A stretch of 64,000 nucleotides of DNA from Candidatus Chisholmbacteria bacterium. Lineage in GTDB: Bacteria > Patescibacteriota > Microgenomatia > UBA1400 > Chisholmbacteraceae. Positions 1,856 to 52,185 of this stretch are shown piece after piece. Numbering within the stretch: position 1 is the stretch's first letter; the number at the start of each line of letters is the position of its first letter. Below the pieces are notes generated by a model. That model saw only the letters and a program-made list of their open reading frames with translations, was not told where the DNA came from and ran no database searches. The position numbers were made by a program, and so were the translations under genes. The stretch spans positions 203,011 to 267,010 of the forward strand of contig CAVPHZ010000002.1 of the NCBI GenBank assembly GCA_963704905.1, written 5' to 3'.

Positions 1856-3598
1856 ATGAAAGTTGAAATATTTAAAAAAGATGTAAAATCCCTGAAAAAA
1901 ACTCCTAATCTTCCAGATTATGATGCCTACCACCAAAAATTTAAATGGAGCGATGCAAAAGATGAAATTGAATACTTTAGCGGTAAACTAAACGCAGCCT
2001 ATAATGCAGTTGACCGCAATGCAAATAATTGGAGAAAAAATAAAATTGCCTTATATTGGGAAGGTGACGAAGGTAACAAGCTCAGATACACCTTCACTGA
2101 TCTTTACAAGAGATCGAATCAATTCAGCAATCTCCTTCATACTCTAGATGTTCAAAAAAGCGATAGAGTCTTTTTCTTCCTCCCCAGAGTTCCAGAGTTG
2201 TACTATGGCTTTCTTGGTACCGTAAAACGTGGCAGCATAGCCGGAACCATGTTTTCTGCCTTTGGTCCTAAAGCAATTCAAGACCGTCTTGGTAACAGCA
2301 GTGCCAAAGTAGTTGTGACAAATAAAGAGTTGCTTCCCAGAGTTCTGAAAGTTGTAAAAGACCTTCCGGAATTGGAAACTATTCTGCTAGTCGATTCAAC
2401 CCAGGAGAAAAAGGAAGGACACGCGCGAATCGTTTCTCTGAGAAAACTCATCGATAAAGAGAAGGAAAGCTACGAGACTCGCATGATGAATCCAGAGGAT
2501 CCCGCTTTCATGCTCTACACTTCAGGAACAACTGGTAAACCGAAAGGTGTTATTCATGCACATCGCTCAATTCTTCATGAACACATGAGCGCTAAATGGG
2601 TCCTCGACCTCCAAGAAGACGATGTCTACTGGTGCACGGCTGATCCAGGATGGGTCACTGGTATTGCCTACGAAATCCTTGGAAGTTGGTCTAACGGTGC
2701 TTCTTCCGTTGTCTATGCAGGCCGTTTTAGTCCAGAAAAATGGTATGAAATCATTCAAGAATATAGTGTAAACGTTTGGTATACAGCACCTACAGCCATC
2801 AGAATGCTGGCTGCAGCCAAGGGAAATCCCTCTAAAAACTACGATTTCAGTTCTCTGAGGCATTTGGCAAGTGTTGGCGAGCCTCTCAATCCAGAGCCTA
2901 TCCGTTGGGGTCTAAAAACCTTTGGTTTACCATTCCACGACAATTGGTGGCAAACCGAGACTGGCGGGATTCTCATTGCCAATTATCCTTCTATGGATAT
3001 CAGACTCGGATCCATGGGTAAACCCTTGCCGGGAGTACATGCTGCAATTATTGATGATGAGGGTAAAGAACTTGGACCGAATCAGGAAGGCGACTTAGCA
3101 ATAAAGCCTGGTTGGCCATCGATGATGAAGACCATTTGGCGCAGGCCAAAAAAATACGATTCATATTTCCTCAAAGGCTGGTACATCAGCGGTGACCGTG
3201 CCTTCAAAGACAAGGATGGATATTTTTGGTTCATCGGTCGCGCAGACGATGTTATTAAAACAGCAGGGGAGCGGGTTGGTCCTTTCGAGGTCGAGTCCGC
3301 ACTTGTAGAACATCCTGACATCATTGAAGCTGGTGTTATTGGAAAGCCCGACGCTATGCGCGGTGAAATCATCAAAGCCTTTGTTACGCTCCGACCTGGA
3401 GTAGAGCAAACCGAGAAGCTTAAAGAGGAAATTCAAGTGTTTATCAAAAAGCATCTTGCAGGTCATGCCTACCCTCGCGAAATAGAATTTAAGGATGATC
3501 TCCCCAAAACCCGTTCTGGGAAAATTATGCGCAGGATGCTTAAAGCGCAAGAACTTGGACTACCCATAGGAGATACCTCTACCTTAGCCAAATTTTAG
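1856..3598 (+). CDS. AMP-forming acyl/acetyl-CoA synthetase (adenylate-forming enzyme)
   Basis: AMP-binding motif YTSGTTGKPKGV; N-terminal region resembles acetyl-CoA synthetases; C-terminal lysine motif PKTRSGKIMRR. Confidence 0.75.
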   Translation: MKVEIFKKDVKSLKKTPNLPDYDAYHQKFKWSDAKDEIEYFSGKLNAAYNAVDRNANNWRKNKIALYWEGDEGNKLRYTFTDLYKRSNQFSNLLHTLDVQKSDRVFFFLPRVPELYYGFLGTVKRGSIAGTMFSAFGPKAIQDRLGNSSAKVVVTNKELLPRVLKVVKDLPELETILLVDSTQEKKEGHARIVSLRKLIDKEKESYETRMMNPEDPAFMLYTSGTTGKPKGVIHAHRSILHEHMSAKWVLDLQEDDVYWCTADPGWVTGIAYEILGSWSNGASSVVYAGRFSPEKWYEIIQEYSVNVWYTAPTAIRMLAAAKGNPSKNYDFSSLRHLASVGEPLNPEPIRWGLKTFGLPFHDNWWQTETGGILIANYPSMDIRLGSMGKPLPGVHAAIIDDEGKELGPNQEGDLAIKPGWPSMMKTIWRRPKKYDSYFLKGWYISGDRAFKDKDGYFWFIGRADDVIKTAGERVGPFEVESALVEHPDIIEAGVIGKPDAMRGEIIKAFVTLRPGVEQTEKLKEEIQVFIKKHLAGHAYPREIEFKDDLPKTRSGKIMRRMLKAQELGLPIGDTSTLAKF

Positions 3599-11235: not shown

Positions 11236-11397
11236 ATGCCTGGAGATGAAGAAACCAAACCAAATGGAGTTGAGTTGCACAAAGATGAAAAAATGCAATC
11301 GGCGGTTCGTCGTTTGATTCAAAAACTGGGTGGCAATCCAGACAAACCAAAACAATCCACTGAAAACCAAAATAATACTGAATCAGACTCTTCTTAA
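11236..11397 (+). CDS. Small hypothetical protein (53 aa) between uvrB and uvrA
   Basis: ATG at 11236 just after the uvrB stop; hydrophilic Lys/Glu-rich peptide MPGDEETKPNGVELHKDEKMQSAVRRLIQKLGG...; no recognisable domain. Confidence 0.2.
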   Translation: MPGDEETKPNGVELHKDEKMQSAVRRLIQKLGGNPDKPKQSTENQNNTESDSS

Positions 11398-11455: not shown

Positions 11456-14398
11456 ATGAAAGAAAATGTAATTAAGGTTATTGGTGCCAATCAGCATAAC
11501 CTAAAAAACGTCAACTTAAAGTTTCCCAAGAACAAACTTGTTGTCTTTACTGGTGTCTCAGGGAGTGGTAAAAGCTCAATGGCCTTTGATACCATTTACG
11601 CTGAAGGGCAACGTCGGTATGTGGAGTCACTGAGTTCGTATGCTCGGCAATTTCTCGGCATCATGAACAAACCGGAAGTAGAATCAATCGAAGGGCTTTC
11701 TCCAGCAATCTCGATTGACCAGAAGACTACTAGTCACAATCCTCGTTCGACTGTCGGAACCATCACGGAAATTTATGACTACCTGAGACTGCTGTACGCC
11801 AGAGTTGGACATCCGCACTGTCCAAAATGTGGAAAGGAAATCAGCAAACAATCACCACAGCAAATCTCTGAAGCAATTCTTGAACTGATAGTTGCAGAAA
11901 CTCGAAAAGAATCTCATGCAAGAGCCTTGCTTCTGGCTCCAATAGTTCGAGATAGAAAAGGAGAATTTACTTCTTTGTTTAGAAATCTTAAATCTCAAGG
12001 TTTTCAACGGGTAAGAATAGATGGAACCGTATTTGATGTCGATGAAGATCTATTCCTAATCAAAACGAACAAACATACAATTGACGTCGTTATCGATCGT
12101 ATCGCCTTTTCAAAAAAAGAAGCGAAAGATGATGTTTCCATCAGCAACATGAGGAGTCGGATCTCGAGATCAGTTGAACAGGCACTCAACTTAAGCAGTG
12201 GTCTTGTGGTTATTGCTCTGATTAAAGACAAAGGCTTCAATCTACCAGAGAGACCAAAGCAATTTGAAAATCATCTTTACTCAGAACATTTTGCCTGTCC
12301 TGATGACAATATCAGCCTTCCGGAGATAGAACCTCGCTCCTTTTCATTCAACTCCCCACATGGCGCCTGTCCTACCTGTAACGGCCTTGGAACGCTTCTT
12401 AAAGTCGATTCGGATCTTATGATAAACCCAAGGTTAACAATTGCCCAAGGTGCGATCTTACCCTACGCGAGTCTTACTTCAGAACGTGGGAGTTGGTATG
12501 GTCGGCTTATTCATTCGATTCTGGAGGTGTACAACGAGTCTCCTGATACGACTTGGGAGCATCTTCCTTCTGGTTTAAGAGAAATTCTCCTTAATGGTGA
12601 TGATTCTCGAGTTTTCACGATATCAGGAACCAGTAATTCAGGGAAAAGTAGATCGTACGATACAACCTTTGAAGGCATCATCAACAACCTTTCCAGAAGA
12701 TATAGAGAAACCCAATCTGAAATCGTCAGAGCCGAAATAGAAAAATACATGCGCAAGGAAATATGTCCCGAGTGTAAAGGTGCACGATTGAAGAAAGAGG
12801 CACTCTCAATTACCATTGAAGATCAAAATATTATTGATATCACTCGAAAACAAATTTATCATGCGCGGAAATGGATTCGCGCACTCAGCACCGACATCTT
12901 CCTCACGGATAAAGAAAATATCATAGGAGGACCAATCATTAAGGAGATTAACGCCCGTCTGGATTTTCTCGTCTCAGTTGGTTTAGCCTATTTAACCCTC
13001 GATCGTGAAGCTTCAACCTTAGCTGGCGGAGAAGCACAAAGAATTCGTTTAGCCTCTCAAATTGGAAGTGGTCTGACAGGAGTATTATATGTACTTGACG
13101 AGCCTACCGTTGGTCTCCATCAACGTGACAACCAACGTCTGATTACCACACTCAAAAATCTACGAGATCTTGGAAATACAGTGCTGGTTGTTGAGCACGA
13201 CCGCGATACCATAGAAAATGCAGACTGGATCGTGGATTTTGGTCTGGGTGCAGGGAAATATGGCGGAGAGCTAATCGCAGAAGGTACACTAGCACACATC
13301 AAAAAATCAAAAAGATCATTAACCGGAAAATACCTGAGTGGGAAAAAACACGTCAAGTACGAAAGGCTTCTGGATAATGGTAGCGTTAGCTCCGAAGTTA
13401 CAATCGGCTCAATCATTCTTGAGGGTTGTACACATCACAATCTGAAAAATGTCAATGTCAGGTTTCCCTTAGGAAAATTAGTCTGTATAACCGGAGTCTC
13501 TGGTTCTGGAAAATCAACACTAATTCACGATATCCTTTATCATGCTCTTTCTCGAGAATTGAATTTCCTCCACAAAGATAAACCGGGAGAGTTTAAATCC
13601 ATCAAAGGTGTTGGAGAAATATCAAAAGTCAGTCTTATTGACCAAAGTCCGATTGGTAAGACACCACGTTCGAATCCAGCCACCTATACAAAAGCTTTTG
13701 ACCATATAAGAAAACTATTTTCGTTGACGAAGGATGCAGCTGTTAGCGGTTATCAGCCAGGAAGATTCTCTTTCAACGTACGTGGCGGTCGATGTGAAGC
13801 ATGCCAGGGTGGTGGTCAGGTAAAAATTGAGATGCAATTCCTTCCCGATGTATACGTAACATGTGAAGTATGTAACGGCACACGATATAACAATGAAACA
13901 CTTGAAATCCGCTACCGCGGAAAAACCATCAATGATGTCTTGAAAATGAATGTAGATGAAGCAGTGGAATTTTTTGGTCAAATATCAGGTCTTGGTATAA
14001 AGTTAAAAATGCTGAAAGAGGTAGGTCTCGGTTACATTGAACTCGGACAACCAGCGCCAACACTTTCTGGAGGAGAAGCTCAACGCATAAAAATTTCTCG
14101 CGAGCTTTCAGTGACCAGTCCAGGTCACACAGTATATCTTCTTGACGAACCAACAACTGGATTACACTTTGCCGATCTGGAAAAACTTTTGAGCGTACTC
14201 AAACAGCTTGTATTTCATGGAAACACGGTCATTGTCATCGAACACAACCTCGATATTATTAAAAATGCTGACCACATTATTGATCTCGGACCGGAAGGTG
14301 GCGATGAGGGTGGTAAACTAATTGCAGAAGGAACACCAAAGCAAGTAGCAAAAATCAAATCCTCACACACAGGAAACTTTTTAAGCCGAGTCCTCTAA
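11456..14398 (+). CDS. uvrA: Excinuclease ABC subunit A
   Basis: 980 aa; two ABC ATPase modules (GVSGSGKSS / GVSGSGKST, LSGGEAQR x2) and zinc-finger Cys clusters. Confidence 0.95.
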   Translation: MKENVIKVIGANQHNLKNVNLKFPKNKLVVFTGVSGSGKSSMAFDTIYAEGQRRYVESLSSYARQFLGIMNKPEVESIEGLSPAISIDQKTTSHNPRSTVGTITEIYDYLRLLYARVGHPHCPKCGKEISKQSPQQISEAILELIVAETRKESHARALLLAPIVRDRKGEFTSLFRNLKSQGFQRVRIDGTVFDVDEDLFLIKTNKHTIDVVIDRIAFSKKEAKDDVSISNMRSRISRSVEQALNLSSGLVVIALIKDKGFNLPERPKQFENHLYSEHFACPDDNISLPEIEPRSFSFNSPHGACPTCNGLGTLLKVDSDLMINPRLTIAQGAILPYASLTSERGSWYGRLIHSILEVYNESPDTTWEHLPSGLREILLNGDDSRVFTISGTSNSGKSRSYDTTFEGIINNLSRRYRETQSEIVRAEIEKYMRKEICPECKGARLKKEALSITIEDQNIIDITRKQIYHARKWIRALSTDIFLTDKENIIGGPIIKEINARLDFLVSVGLAYLTLDREASTLAGGEAQRIRLASQIGSGLTGVLYVLDEPTVGLHQRDNQRLITTLKNLRDLGNTVLVVEHDRDTIENADWIVDFGLGAGKYGGELIAEGTLAHIKKSKRSLTGKYLSGKKHVKYERLLDNGSVSSEVTIGSIILEGCTHHNLKNVNVRFPLGKLVCITGVSGSGKSTLIHDILYHALSRELNFLHKDKPGEFKSIKGVGEISKVSLIDQSPIGKTPRSNPATYTKAFDHIRKLFSLTKDAAVSGYQPGRFSFNVRGGRCEACQGGGQVKIEMQFLPDVYVTCEVCNGTRYNNETLEIRYRGKTINDVLKMNVDEAVEFFGQISGLGIKLKMLKEVGLGYIELGQPAPTLSGGEAQRIKISRELSVTSPGHTVYLLDEPTTGLHFADLEKLLSVLKQLVFHGNTVIVIEHNLDIIKNADHIIDLGPEGGDEGGKLIAEGTPKQVAKIKSSHTGNFLSRVL

Positions 14399-35172: not shown

Positions 35173-35261
35173 TTCTTCGCAGTATACCAAACTCAGCTTT
35201 AGGTGTTTCACTGTAAATTTCATGAGAGACTTTGTTTCACTACTTCAATGAAATTTACTAG

Positions 35262-35334
35262 TGCCAGGGAGAGGAGTCGAACCTCTATCTCATGTTTTTC
35301 AGACACGCGCCGTGACCACCTTGGCTACCCTGGC
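35262..35334 (-). tRNA. tRNA-Phe (anticodon GAA), atypical D arm
   Basis: Manual fold: acceptor GCCAGGG/CCCTGGC, anticodon stem CGTGT/ACATG (one G-U) with loop CTGAAAA, T arm AGAGG-TTCGACT-CCTCT. D arm has a short 3-bp stem and long loop. Confidence 0.75.
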
Positions 35335-42082: not shown

Positions 42083-42265
42083 TTGACACATCCATTACAT
42101 ATTTGCTAAATATAACAATTATGAACAAAGTCTCTCAAACCTACATGCTTATTGATCCTATTTTTGTCCTTATTACCAAGGGCAGTTTTGGTTTGGGGGA
42201 AACGTTGTAAATAAAAATTAAAAATAAGCAAAAACACGAAACCTCCAAACCAGGAGGTTTTTTTG
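42083..42265 (+). promoter_or_regulatory. Candidate leader-peptide transcription attenuator. TTGACA-N18-TAAATA promoter, 29-codon leader ORF (42121-42210, MNKVSQTYMLIDPIFVLITKGSFGLGETL), antiterminator strand GGTTTGGGGG, terminator CCTCC-aaacca-GGAGG-U7.
   Basis: Seen directly: -35 TTGACA at 42083-42088; leader ATG at 42121 (near-leaderless); GGTTTGGGGG (42190-42199) is complementary to CCTCCAAACC (42242-42251) with one G-U; CCTCC (42242-46) also pairs with GGAGG (42253-57), followed by TTTTTTT. Confidence 0.45.
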
Positions 42266-44626: not shown

Positions 44627-44667
44627 TAATTAATAATCAATAATGTAACTTGATAAACCTAACAAAA

Positions 44668-44798
44668 ATGAATCTGATTACAAGAATCACCACATCTTTT
44701 GAATTTTTTAGCTTCTGCAAAGGAGGTTGTGTTCTTGCGGAAAAGTAACTACTAATAGATAGCAAGAAATATACAACCTCCATTCCGGAGGTTTTTTT
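44668..44798 (+). promoter_or_regulatory. Candidate Phe-responsive leader-peptide attenuator. 26-codon leader ORF (44668-44747, MNLITRITTSFEFFSFCKGGCVLAEK), antiterminator GGAGGTTGT:ACAACCTCC, terminator AACCTCC-attcc-GGAGGTT-U7 containing the GGAGG upstream of the ATG.
   Basis: Seen directly: GGAGGTTGT (44722-30) is perfectly complementary to ACAACCTCC (44773-81); CCTCC (44777-81) alternatively pairs with GGAGG (44787-91), followed by T7 and the ATG at 44799. Leader has 4 Phe codons within 6 codons (TTT GAA TTT TTT AGC TTC). Confidence 0.5.
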
Positions 44799-46442
44799 AT
44801 GACTAAACAAGAAAAAGTAACGCATAAAAACATCGGCAGAGGAGAAATATTAAATCTTCATGGCCAACTGCTTCCGACAGGCAACCGAGAACCAGATATT
44901 CATCAGGGAGAGGGTGCTATTTTGATGGATCTGAGCGGAAACGTAAAACATGAACTGTGGCGCCTAAGAGCTGGATCAATTTCTGAGTATAATCCTGCAA
45001 TTGACGGAGACTTGATACCTTGGTGTCTTAGTCCAAATGTCAGTATACCACCGTTGCTACTTTCTCCCGATCAAATATTTATTGGCACCGAAGATGAAGA
45101 TCACTTAATAACAAGTGACCCTGAAACATCAGGGGACATGAACAATCTTAAACTTGAAAATATAAACGGACCCGAAACAGAGATAGATCCCGAGCTACTC
45201 ATCAACGCCATAGAAATTAAGCGTATCGGAGGAATGCAGGGTTTCAATGCAATTCTAAGGCACATCCAATCTTCACGGGCACGACTGCTAGATACTGCCA
45301 TTCAATCTGGACAGCACGCTTTGTTCCTGGGTGCACAGCCTACAGCATTGCTGCCGGACATTCACCCACACCCCTACTTGCAAAAAGCAGGTCTAACGAC
45401 TGCAAAGCAATATCTCCAACTAGATCCCGAAAGCCACACGCACCAAACGTACTTCTTCCCTTTAATTGGACAAGACTGGGCAACTGAAACGGATCAGCAG
45501 TATATGCGTGGCTTAAGCCAATTTAGCGGATTAGGTTTTCAAACTAATATAAACATTCCTGTGGATAATGAAAACTTAGCCGTAGAGGTAGGGAATAAAT
45601 TGGCTTTTTCCGACATCTCAATTATTTTAGCAGGCATCTTAAACTCTTCACCAGTCTTAAACGGTGTGCTTTCTGCACGCTCTGACACACGACTCATCGC
45701 TAAACGCGTATTAGCTTCCGCAAATCCACAAGCCGAATTTTATCCGCTTAAAGACGTATTGGAGAGGGTCAATGAGGAGGTAGTTTCAGGAAAAGTTCCT
45801 ACAATTGCCAGAGCCTTATGCCTGGGTGTTGATGGTGGTTCAGTGTTTCACGGCATGGGAATGAGGATTCGAGGAGATAGGGGACAGGGTAATTCAACCT
45901 GGGAAGATATGCTACCATCTACTGGAGACGATGAAATCCAGGCTGCCTATGCATACATTAAAGCCTGCCAAACCAGTTATCTGATCTACTGCCAATCACA
46001 TGCTATCGAACCGGATAGAGATGAATTCAACATCCAACCTTCAGACTACAGAGAATCATTGATCAACGATATCTCCATGTATGGACCAAAACCATACACC
46101 CGCAGGATATTCTCTCATCTTAATTTCTTAGAAAACTTTTTTGATCAAAATGCAATTCCCATTGAAGGATTCGAAGATGCTAAATTGGTATTCAGAAGAG
46201 CTCTACAAACCCCAACAAATTACTGTATCGAAAACTATTATCAAAGAGGGCATTATGACCACAAGATTGGTTTACTTACGGATCATCTCAGAGCCACCGT
46301 CAATCAGGAGATACAAAGTATTGGTGAAAATCCCAATCATTGGATCGACAAATACAATCCACAAATTGCATTAGCCGTTCATTCTGCAATGATGAGATAC
46401 GCCGTCTCGTTGGCGAGATACTACTCTCAACCACCTGTTTAG
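44799..46442 (+). CDS. Large uncharacterised protein B (547 aa), downstream of attenuator 2
   Basis: ATG 8 nt after a GGAGG that lies in the terminator hairpin; no recognisable domain by eye. Confidence 0.5.
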   Translation: MTKQEKVTHKNIGRGEILNLHGQLLPTGNREPDIHQGEGAILMDLSGNVKHELWRLRAGSISEYNPAIDGDLIPWCLSPNVSIPPLLLSPDQIFIGTEDEDHLITSDPETSGDMNNLKLENINGPETEIDPELLINAIEIKRIGGMQGFNAILRHIQSSRARLLDTAIQSGQHALFLGAQPTALLPDIHPHPYLQKAGLTTAKQYLQLDPESHTHQTYFFPLIGQDWATETDQQYMRGLSQFSGLGFQTNINIPVDNENLAVEVGNKLAFSDISIILAGILNSSPVLNGVLSARSDTRLIAKRVLASANPQAEFYPLKDVLERVNEEVVSGKVPTIARALCLGVDGGSVFHGMGMRIRGDRGQGNSTWEDMLPSTGDDEIQAAYAYIKACQTSYLIYCQSHAIEPDRDEFNIQPSDYRESLINDISMYGPKPYTRRIFSHLNFLENFFDQNAIPIEGFEDAKLVFRRALQTPTNYCIENYYQRGHYDHKIGLLTDHLRATVNQEIQSIGENPNHWIDKYNPQIALAVHSAMMRYAVSLARYYSQPPV

Positions 46443-48044: not shown

Positions 48045-48119
48045 GGGGCGGGTAGCTCAGCTGGTTAGAGCGTTACGTTGACATCGTAAAGGTCAGAGGT
48101 TCGAGCCCTCTTCCGCCCA
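48045..48119 (+). tRNA. tRNA-Val (anticodon GAC)
   Basis: Manual fold: acceptor GGGCGGG, D arm GCTC-AGCTGGTTA-GAGC, anticodon stem TTACG/CGTAA with loop TTGACAT, T arm AGAGG-TTCGAGC-CCTCT. TACAAT -10 box 11 nt upstream. Confidence 0.9.
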
Positions 48120-48126
48120 CCCAGCT

Positions 48127-48811: not shown

Positions 48812-48872
48812 AATGTCCATGCAATTTCACAATCGTAAACTGAAGAATACGATTCCCATCTTCTAGTATTCG

Positions 48873-49038
48873 TTGACAGCCACTGCTATACTATTTAGTA
48901 GAAACAATCTTTGCCTTGATCCAGCCTCACCAATTGGGAAGCAAAGCGTCAACCCGCGAACGGGGAGAATAAAGACCAAATCAGGATGGAACCGTCTTGA
49001 GCGCAGCGAAAGACTCCTGAATAAGGGGTCTTTTTTTT
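48873..49038 (+). promoter_or_regulatory. Candidate T-box leader upstream of thrS (promoter TTGACA 48873-78; antiterminator with UGGAACC bulge; terminator 49011-49038)
   Basis: Seen directly: AAATCAGGATGGAACCGTC matches T-box consensus AAUUAGGGUGGNACCGCG. Helix A1 CAGGA/TCCTG, 7-nt bulge TGGAACC (48987-93), helix A2 GTCTT/AAGAC, overlapping terminator AGACTCC-tgaataa-GGGGTCT followed by T8. Confidence 0.55.
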
Positions 49039-49094
49039 GTATTCGTTATAAATTTTAGATAATATGCTTCCCGCCGAAGTGTCTGATCTCGAAC

Positions 49095-52080: not shown

Positions 52081-52164
52081 AATGATTCTGATGAAATTAA
52101 ACTCAACCACCACCTTTTTCTTTAGTCCACTGTAAACGAGGGGAGTGTTATTATGGAAAAACCA

Positions 52165-52185
52165 ACTCCCCAAGGGGAGTTTTTT
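52165..52185 (+). terminator. Intrinsic terminator after rplT (ACTCCCC-aa-GGGGAGT + T5), with an upstream alternative partner GGGGAGTG at 52140-52147
   Basis: Perfect 7-bp GC-rich inverted repeat followed by TTTTT; a third copy of GGGGAGT 25 nt upstream could form an alternative hairpin. Confidence 0.5.

Follow-up and report, generated by a model that had tools for sequence, protein, structure and literature searches.

The 64,000-bp stretch of DNA analysed here (the window; contig CAVPHZ010000002.1 of a Candidatus Chisholmbacteria bacterium, positions 203,011 to 267,010 of the forward strand) carries a gene for an orphan protein of 547 amino acids (aa), predicted to be a ligase. Directly upstream of this gene lies an element that is very probably a ribosome-mediated (leader-peptide) transcription attenuator sensing charged tRNA-Phe and controlling the ligase gene. 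The assignment draws on direct reading of the nucleotide sequence, on predicted RNA folds and on comparison with related loci. In predicted folds the four-region layout of a classical attenuator is complete in the window element. The full element, comprising the leader open reading frame (ORF), the alternative pairings 1:2, 2:3 and 3:4 and the U-tract, was found in all four other members of the gene family that could be placed on contigs (five of five when the window is included). Coordinates refer to the window unless another locus is named, and the parts of the element are the following:

44630..44659, + strand: possible weak promoter, TTAATA-N18-TGaTAAACC, uncertain (best promoter score 6/12).
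44668..44748, + strand: leader ORF of 26 codons plus TAA, MNLITRITTSFEFFSFCKGGCVLAEK, with Phe-rich counterparts in all orthologous loci.
44673..44701, + strand: region 1, 5′ strand of the 1:2 hairpin (anti-antiterminator or pause hairpin), overlapping the first Phe codon.
44698..44715, + strand: regulatory Phe codon cluster, TTT GAA TTT TTT AGC TTC.
44722..44738, + strand: region 2, antiterminator 5′ strand GGAGGUUGUGUUCUUGC, inside the leader ORF; the 3′ strand of the 1:2 hairpin spans 44718-44741.
44762..44781, + strand: region 3, GCAAGA-AAU-AUACAACCUCC, which pairs with region 2 (−24.0 kcal/mol) or, via AACCUCC, with region 4.
44775..44798, + strand: intrinsic terminator made of AACCUCC, the loop AUUCC, GGAGGUU and the U-tract (7 bp, −10.1 kcal/mol).
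44787..44791, + strand: GGAGG in the terminator 3′ arm, 7 nt before the ATG at 44799; putative Shine-Dalgarno sequence.
44799..46442, + strand: regulated gene, encoding the 547-aa orphan protein with a predicted YbdK/glutamate-cysteine-ligase fold (carboxylate-amine ligase).

Direct reading of the window places the initiation codon of the leader ORF at 44668 and its stop codon TAA at 44746-48. An earlier sequence-only reading had recognised this ORF and ended it at 44747; the ORF stands and its true end is 44748. Four Phe in six codons, as that reading had counted, are present at 44698, 44704, 44707 and 44713. The perfect 9-nt complementarity that it had noted between GGAGGTTGT (44722-30) and ACAACCTCC (44773-81) is exact. 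The antiterminator is longer than first noted: GGAGGUUGUGU followed by UCUUGC (44722-38) pairs with GCAAGA-AAU-AUACAACCUCC (44762-81) over 17 bp with a 3-nt bulge, and folding assigns this 2:3 helix −24.0 kcal/mol. The CCTCC/GGAGG hairpin described as terminator-like is where it had been placed, with a 7-bp stem formed by AACCTCC (44775-81) and GGAGGTT (44787-93) around the loop ATTCC, and with seven T residues (44792-98) before the ATG at 44799. Secondary-structure prediction, the check that had been suggested, returned both the antiterminator and the terminator and, in addition, a 1:2 hairpin absent from the earlier description (44673-44701 with 44718-44741, −16.8 kcal/mol). The energy of this hairpin is the minimum free energy of the partial transcript 44668-44745 and is unchanged on extension to 44768. 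The antiterminator (44722-38/44762-81; −24 to −26 kcal/mol as a duplex) covers the entire 5′ arm of the terminator, which makes the two structures mutually exclusive. When the footprint of a ribosome was masked in the folding, an A site at the Phe codons 44698, 44704 or 44707 gave the antiterminator while an A site at 44713 gave the terminator. In these folds, the proposal that stalling at the first Phe codons would leave the antiterminator strand free is supported for the first three codons but not for the fourth.

These structures suggest the following sequence of events. The leader ORF (44668-44748) would be translated while RNA polymerase transcribes the leader, and the 1:2 hairpin would form first in the nascent RNA. 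With ample Phe-tRNA the ribosome would pass the Phe codons and cover region 2 (44718-44741) as it moves towards the stop codon at 44746. Region 3 would then be free as region 4 emerges, the 3:4 terminator would form and transcription would end in the U-tract (44792-98), a single base short of the ATG; in any RNA that reads through, the GGAGG would stay within the hairpin. When Phe-tRNA is scarce, the ribosome would stall with the Phe codon at 44698, 44704 or 44707 in its A site, melting region 1 and leaving GGAGGUUGUGUUCUUGC exposed (region 2 being free from about 44720). The exposed region 2 would capture region 3 (−24 kcal/mol) and pre-empt the terminator, so that the polymerase would enter the gene and the GGAGG would be free.

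Orthologous loci were located by protein homology alone: L001, L008 and L009 at 41-43% identity and L043 at 34%. Homologous loci without the Phe cluster or without the complementary strands had been named as the observation that would count against the attenuator, and all four located orthologues carry both. Their leaders, which have in-frame Phe runs of FFFF, FFF, FFFF and FFFF, are:

L001: MNQFNTFTFFFFNAFSGEVKV; no promoter seen before the leader.
L008: MKTHASLFSKFFFSLAKGRYGCLT; promoter before the leader.
L009: MNLKNTSILFFFFNLIEGEGVL; promoter TTGACA-N17-TATAAT before the leader.
L043 (34% identity): MSEIFSQTNWFFFFNRLNGLGDNVDE; promoter before the leader.

In every orthologue region 2 complements the terminator 5′ arm, a U-tract terminator stands just ahead of the gene, and the 1:2 hairpins of the four are predicted at −17 to −20 kcal/mol. 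Because the pairing strands differ completely between loci (for instance ACAAGAAUCAC/GUGUUCUUG, ACACUUUUACCU/AGGUAAAAGUGU and UUUCUCAAACCA/UGGUUUGGGAGA), it is the structure that is conserved rather than the sequence. Constrained folds of L001 follow the textbook pattern: the free RNA adopts the 1:2 hairpin and the terminator, a ribosome on the stop codon yields the terminator, and a ribosome at six of the seven Phe codons yields the antiterminator. In 15 related leaders the T-blocks are broken only by whole codons (GAA, AGC, GTC, AAG, GCATGC), and C occurs solely at codon position 3. The nucleotides GCAAAGG(GG)AGGT that follow the Phe codons are common to the leaders of the window, L008, L010 and L011, and L012 retains the GGGGAGGT core. 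This shared segment is read in different frames, as C-K-G-G in the window and as A-K-G-R in the Chisholmbacteria-type leaders, hence the target of selection past the Phe codons is the RNA strand (region 2), not the peptide.

The pairings were compared with chance by per-locus shuffles. These replaced an alignment-based covariation count because helices shift and indels separate the loci, and because cores picked by complementarity would render such a count circular. The window 2:3 duplex reaches −26.4 kcal/mol, against a mean of −7.7 with region 2 shuffled (z −7.5; none of 1000 shuffles reaches it), and the fold of the whole window leader has a z of −3.5 to −3.7 relative to dinucleotide shuffles. 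The arrangement CCTCC-N3-9-GGAGG occurs twice in the 64 kb, where 0.14 copies are expected, each time immediately upstream of one of the cluster's two large orphan genes. Among 15 tabulated elements the 2:3 duplex is better than its shuffles in 13 (p 0.001-0.024); the remaining two, both upstream of pheS, have p 0.057 and 0.23. The last Phe codon of the tabulated elements lies 5-18 nt before region 2, and a run of 5-8 T follows straight after the stem in each. A scan of 525 kb of window and related DNA for small ORFs with at least four of one residue in seven upstream of 70 terminator-like sites found 16 such ORFs for Phe (15 credible), one for Asn and none for Lys or Ile. Phe is the only strongly enriched residue, and AT-richness does not explain its runs since the other residues with AT-rich codons are not enriched before terminators.

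The same design precedes other genes, including one further site within the window:

52082-52185: third attenuator, between rplT and pheS, with a T-run at 52180-85 and a leader ATG 1 nt past the rplT stop codon.

This leader (ATG at 52082) encodes MILMKLNSTTTFFFSPL, and its GGGGAGT (52140-46) pairs with ACTCCCC (52165-71). Its stop codon comes before region 2, a second design common to all pheS copies. Phe-leader attenuators are also found upstream of pheS in L011, L013, L019, L020 and L026, as well as in L027, where a six-Phe leader (MTPTSFFFFFFSRT) precedes an extended PheS. In L013 (13774-13996) the Phe-leader attenuator comes first, a tRNA-Phe(GAA) gene (13898-13971) next and pheS last, an organisation in which a tRNA gene appears, from its sequence context, to be under leader-peptide attenuation for its own amino acid. 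A Thr-run leader (MSQGITITTTTIL) with a terminator is found directly upstream of thrS in L042 (13285-13400). The presence of this design before pheS, before tRNA-Phe with pheS and, with a Thr run, before thrS links the codon runs to how much cognate aminoacyl-tRNA is available. Sequence context also suggests that Microgenomates commonly place their aminoacyl-tRNA synthetase genes under codon-run attenuators and not under T-boxes, the usual regulators of such genes in Firmicutes.

Nine of 17 related leaders have a sigma-70-like promoter whose −10 box ends 7-8 nt short of the leader ATG, a spacing seen at 2.1% of 13,453 background ATGs. The nine are those of L008, L013, L019, L020, L024, L026, L036 and L043 and of attenuator 1 (42085-42123), which lies upstream of the other large orphan gene of the window. 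This spacing suggests that many of the related Microgenomates leader peptides are probably translated from leaderless mRNAs.

Several properties of the window copy weigh against the attenuator. No recognisable promoter (best score 6/12) or Shine-Dalgarno sequence was seen before the window leader ATG. The Phe cluster (F-E-F-F-S-F) is the weakest and least pure of the family, and the 7-bp terminator is modest. The free window RNA at equilibrium is 99.97% antiterminator, so that termination must rest on kinetics and on a ribosome covering region 2; with a ribosome at the stop codon, the mask extends over 44731-58 and hides just the 3′ half of region 2, leaving GGAGGUUGU exposed. The missing Shine-Dalgarno sequence is in itself no objection, because Shine-Dalgarno cores are not enriched before window ORFs (6 of 43 ORFs of at least 150 aa, taking longest-ORF starts, versus 10.6% at random positions). 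The window leader may be translated either on read-through RNA from the upstream operon of the 538-aa and amidotransferase genes or by way of the weak TGaTAAACC extended −10 element. If the 44630-44659 promoter is used, the 5′ end of the transcript is the leader ATG or lies 1-2 nt before it. The segment TTGnTAAAnnTAACAAnnATGAA of this region aligns with the leader of attenuator 1, which owns a good TTGACA promoter.

The position of the GGAGG raises the question of whether control might be purely translational, the 3:4 hairpin only hiding the GGAGG and the start region, and a Phe stall freeing them through the 2:3 pairing with no termination involved. In three of the five orthologues (window, L001 and L009) the GGAGG forms part of the terminator 3′ arm at a distance of 7 nt from the ATG, and relatives clearly use Shine-Dalgarno sequences before some genes; these are perfect copies of AAGGAGGTGAT, hence the anti-Shine-Dalgarno is canonical. 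We nevertheless regard purely translational control as unlikely. The 5-8 T right after the stem of every element are the signature of an intrinsic terminator, and use of Shine-Dalgarno sequences in the window is low. Moreover, the hairpins of L008, L043 and the pheS copies are separated from the start codon by 12 to more than 100 nt and therefore cannot serve as Shine-Dalgarno sequestors; the distance from GGAGG to ATG is 12 nt in L008 and 17 nt in L043. The suggestion of the sequence-only reading that the terminator also sequesters the GGAGG of the gene is accordingly only partly upheld: the 7-nt spacing of three loci agrees with it, while its lack of conservation in L008 and L043 and the absence of Shine-Dalgarno enrichment in the window do not. 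A second, translational layer of control through sequestration of the GGAGG is plausible from the sequence of those three loci. A different role for the motif, in which a GGAGG inside the ORF holds the elongating ribosome through the anti-Shine-Dalgarno, was dropped as the spacing between GGAGG and stop codon varies from ~5 to 16 nt between loci (manual count).

Three further explanations do away with Phe-tRNA sensing. The hairpin could be an ordinary intergenic terminator or 5′ hairpin, with the Phe-rich ORF a chance product of a T-rich spacer. The AT-rich genome and a window leader lacking a visible promoter or Shine-Dalgarno sequence would fit, but such an accident is very hard to reconcile with an ORF, a frame, a Phe run and three alternative pairings kept in five loci at 34-43% protein identity, whose upstream neighbours differ and three of which own promoters, or with the lack of enrichment of Lys, Ile and Asn codons before terminators. 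Leaders with runs such as UUUUUCUUUUUU also bring to mind attenuation of the pyrBI type, in which the T-runs would count as uridines and polymerase pausing in U-runs at low UTP would couple it to the ribosome. Runs interrupted by whole codons only, with C confined to codon position 3, point to a constraint at the level of the reading frame; the regulated genes include pheS, pheT and tRNA-Phe and not pyrimidine genes, and a Thr-codon analogue precedes thrS, which leaves UTP sensing a very low probability. Finally, the peptide made from the small ORF might itself have a function, for instance as a precursor that the neighbouring ligase modifies, with the hairpin setting the ratio of peptide to enzyme transcripts. 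The ORF does adjoin an amidoligase-fold enzyme and peptidases or an amidotransferase, and precursor genes in peptide-natural-product clusters can be followed by leaky terminators. Yet the peptide is not conserved past the Phe run, the conserved nucleotides are read in different frames and the same type of leader stands before pheS and tRNA-Phe, and we give this explanation scarcely any weight. T-box or riboswitch control was rejected for want of Rfam matches.

The other large orphan gene of the cluster, which encodes a 538-aa protein, has its own element:

42085-42264: attenuator 1, upstream of the 538-aa orphan gene, with a TTGACA promoter at 42085 and the leader ORF 42121-42210, MNKVSQTYMLIDPIFVLITKGSFGLGETL.

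Here GGTTTGGGGG (42190-99) and CCTCCAAACC (42242-51) are complementary strands, and a T-run comes after the terminator at 42238-61. The leaders of its orthologues in L044 and L045, like that of a gene in L001 for a 590-aa paralogue of the ligase, are rich in Ile, Leu, Val, Met and Phe (for instance MNQYLLNTIMINVLFMGVSGAGGNS) and have no run of a single residue. That this type senses branched-chain amino acids is a guess.

Some observations concern translation genes in the same DNA. The region upstream of thrS in the window (48812-49094) combines a strong terminator (49008-49042) with a promoter-like TTGACA (48875) and shares the segment GGATGGAACCG with L023. Neither a Thr-codon leader nor an Rfam match was found in this window region, which may be a different, uncharacterised leader RNA. 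In L023 a Thr-run leader (MKNLRQTTTTTSTQPF...) with a terminator is located at 11273. The PheS alpha subunit of L027 (15955-17322) is extended at its N terminus by ~280 aa, which bear a weak resemblance to the C-terminal region of alanyl-tRNA synthetase; their match to Pfam tRNA-synt_2c (24 bits) is below cutoff. In the window, 14 tRNA genes are densely set on both strands between 26719 and 40147, among them tRNA-Phe(GAA) at 35261-35334, and a further tRNA-Val gene is found at 48046-48121.

The 547-aa protein belongs to a very rare family, with 4 clusters in 5.8 billion proteins and 6 strong relatives (five full-length and one fragment) among 1.84 billion representative proteins. Scanning genome and metagenome contigs with the 547-aa profile turned up no relatives, widening the alignment for a second homologue search yielded no more, and no contig is on record for the exact 547-aa protein (P0001). 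AlphaFold2 gave a confident model from a 9-sequence alignment (predicted local distance difference test (pLDDT) 86.2, predicted template modelling score (pTM) 0.89); with 4 sequences only the pLDDT was 42, and distant relatives were added to obtain the larger alignment. The predicted structure has the characteristic GCS2/YbdK fold. Residues invariant even in distant relatives are those of a GxExE motif (G96, E98, E100) together with E132, E139, R338, H351, R356, T367 and E369. Compared with YbdK/GCS2 carboxylate-amine ligases the protein is ~190 residues longer, and an Asn replaces a His of the H.H motif of the distant relatives. Pfam and NCBIfam models, GCS2 (PF04107) included, have no match to the 547-, 538- or 590-aa proteins; only the distant relatives P0011 and P0012 give GCS2 family-model matches, which are sub-threshold (E 0.005-0.1). 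A search of PDB sequences returned a spurious LlaJI match only. On the strength of the modelled fold and the invariant residues, the 547-aa protein is probably a divergent carboxylate-amine ligase missed by sequence models. The 590-aa protein of L001 is its distant paralogue (E 7e-5), whereas the idea that the 538- and 547-aa proteins are paralogues was rejected as they have no similarity.

The cluster lies within a variable island that is bounded by trigger factor/DUF5660 on one side and by the thrS-infC-rplT-pheST operon on the other. Genes of the 547-aa family neighbour an M20 peptidase in L001 and L043, and the window copy lies downstream of a class-I amidotransferase/C26-like gene. The island between DUF5660 and thrS is also variable in L044 (2517-8479), L045 and L011 (10834-12986), where amino-acid-salvage-like genes stand behind attenuators: M20 and M24 peptidases, a GNAT protein, an MR/MLE-family racemase and a class I/II aminotransferase. 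Together these genes are reminiscent of the N-succinyl-amino-acid racemase pathway, which turns D-amino acids into their L-forms. In L001 an ORF called as an IS200-like Y1 transposase (1871-2773, minus strand) separates DUF5660 from the island, and the 5′ portion of this ORF overlaps the plus-strand promoter and leader (2669) of the 590-aa gene. The neighbouring DUF5660 protein of the window is 60% identical to its Candidatus Chisholmbacteria counterpart. All DUF5660 relatives found are on contigs of metagenome-assembled genomes (MAGs) of Patescibacteria or Microgenomates or of MAGs labelled otherwise. Many MAG contigs (L013-L018, L027-L029, L031, L034, L036 and L038-L041) are titled "uncultured Gammaproteobacteria" or "uncultured Pseudomonadales bacterium" yet have content typical of the Candidate Phyla Radiation (CPR), namely DUF5660, this synteny and these leaders, and are probably mislabelled bins.

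Leader-peptide attenuation requires a ribosome close behind RNA polymerase. The conserved attenuators thus suggest, as far as sequence can tell, that CPR bacteria, with their reduced genomes, couple transcription to translation and control genes in response to amino acids. The element is also the first functional clue to a very rare orphan enzyme family: the YbdK-fold ligase is predicted to be switched on, alongside pheST, when Phe-tRNA is short, a directly testable hypothesis on amino-acid supply in these auxotrophic symbionts. A salvage role of the 547-aa ligase is a guess. More tentatively, and with more doubt than belief on our side, Microgenomates might have a Phe-starvation regulon that works wholly through leader-peptide attenuators, often leaderless. 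It would cover pheST, tRNA-Phe and the salvage island between DUF5660 and thrS, with the YbdK-fold ligase and M20/M24 peptidases or a class-I amidotransferase forming an unknown route of Phe acquisition or recycling in organisms unable to make Phe. A full-text literature search found, within the library searched, no paper joining leader-peptide attenuation with CPR or Patescibacteria. The mechanism is textbook and not novel; the lineage and the gene family are apparently new for it.

No Rfam model matches the window element or 9 related loci at gathering level. The T-box model has no match at that level or at E up to 10. The leu/phe leader of Lactococcus (RF01743), a candidate Phe/Leu-codon leader outside Proteobacteria, likewise has no match in the region at E up to 10. 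Short polycysteine ORFs of mycobacteria are regulatory and are translated from leaderless mRNAs (bioRxiv 10.1101/834739; PMC4633059). The leaderless-type promoter spacing in 9 of the 17 related Microgenomates leaders is alike; the differences are that the amino acid is Phe and not Cys, that the phylum is another one and that the window copy has no convincing promoter. The mycobacterial system is said to act without a canonical intrinsic terminator. With the trp attenuator (trpL) the window element shares the logic of the 1:2, 2:3 and 3:4 pairings, regulatory codons in or next to region 1 and a U-tract after the terminator, but it senses another amino acid. It also differs from trpL in its energies: the 2:3 pairing (−24 kcal/mol) is set against about −15 for the defined 1:2 and 3:4 helices, or −26.9 when the full 1:2 hairpin of −16.8 is counted. 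Since 2:3 is much more stable than the defined 1:2 and 3:4 helices, superattenuation in the absence of translation is not predicted thermodynamically for the window.

The closest comparison is with the leaders of E. coli pheA (pheL; PMC3082878) and pheST (pheM), to which the sequence-only reading had likened the element. The likeness is one of function and not of homology, the Rfam Phe_leader model (RF01859) scoring 21.2 bits on the window element, below its gathering threshold of 55 (E 0.49 in 600 nt). Unlike its E. coli counterparts, the element resides in a CPR host of the Microgenomates group, it precedes an orphan YbdK-fold ligase gene rather than one for a Phe biosynthetic enzyme, and its region 2 is located inside the leader ORF, with the stop codon after it. 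It shares with them a short Phe-codon ORF, antiterminator and terminator hairpins that exclude each other, and an intrinsic terminator ahead of the gene; and, as pheM does in E. coli, a sister copy in the Microgenomates lineage sits before pheS/pheT.

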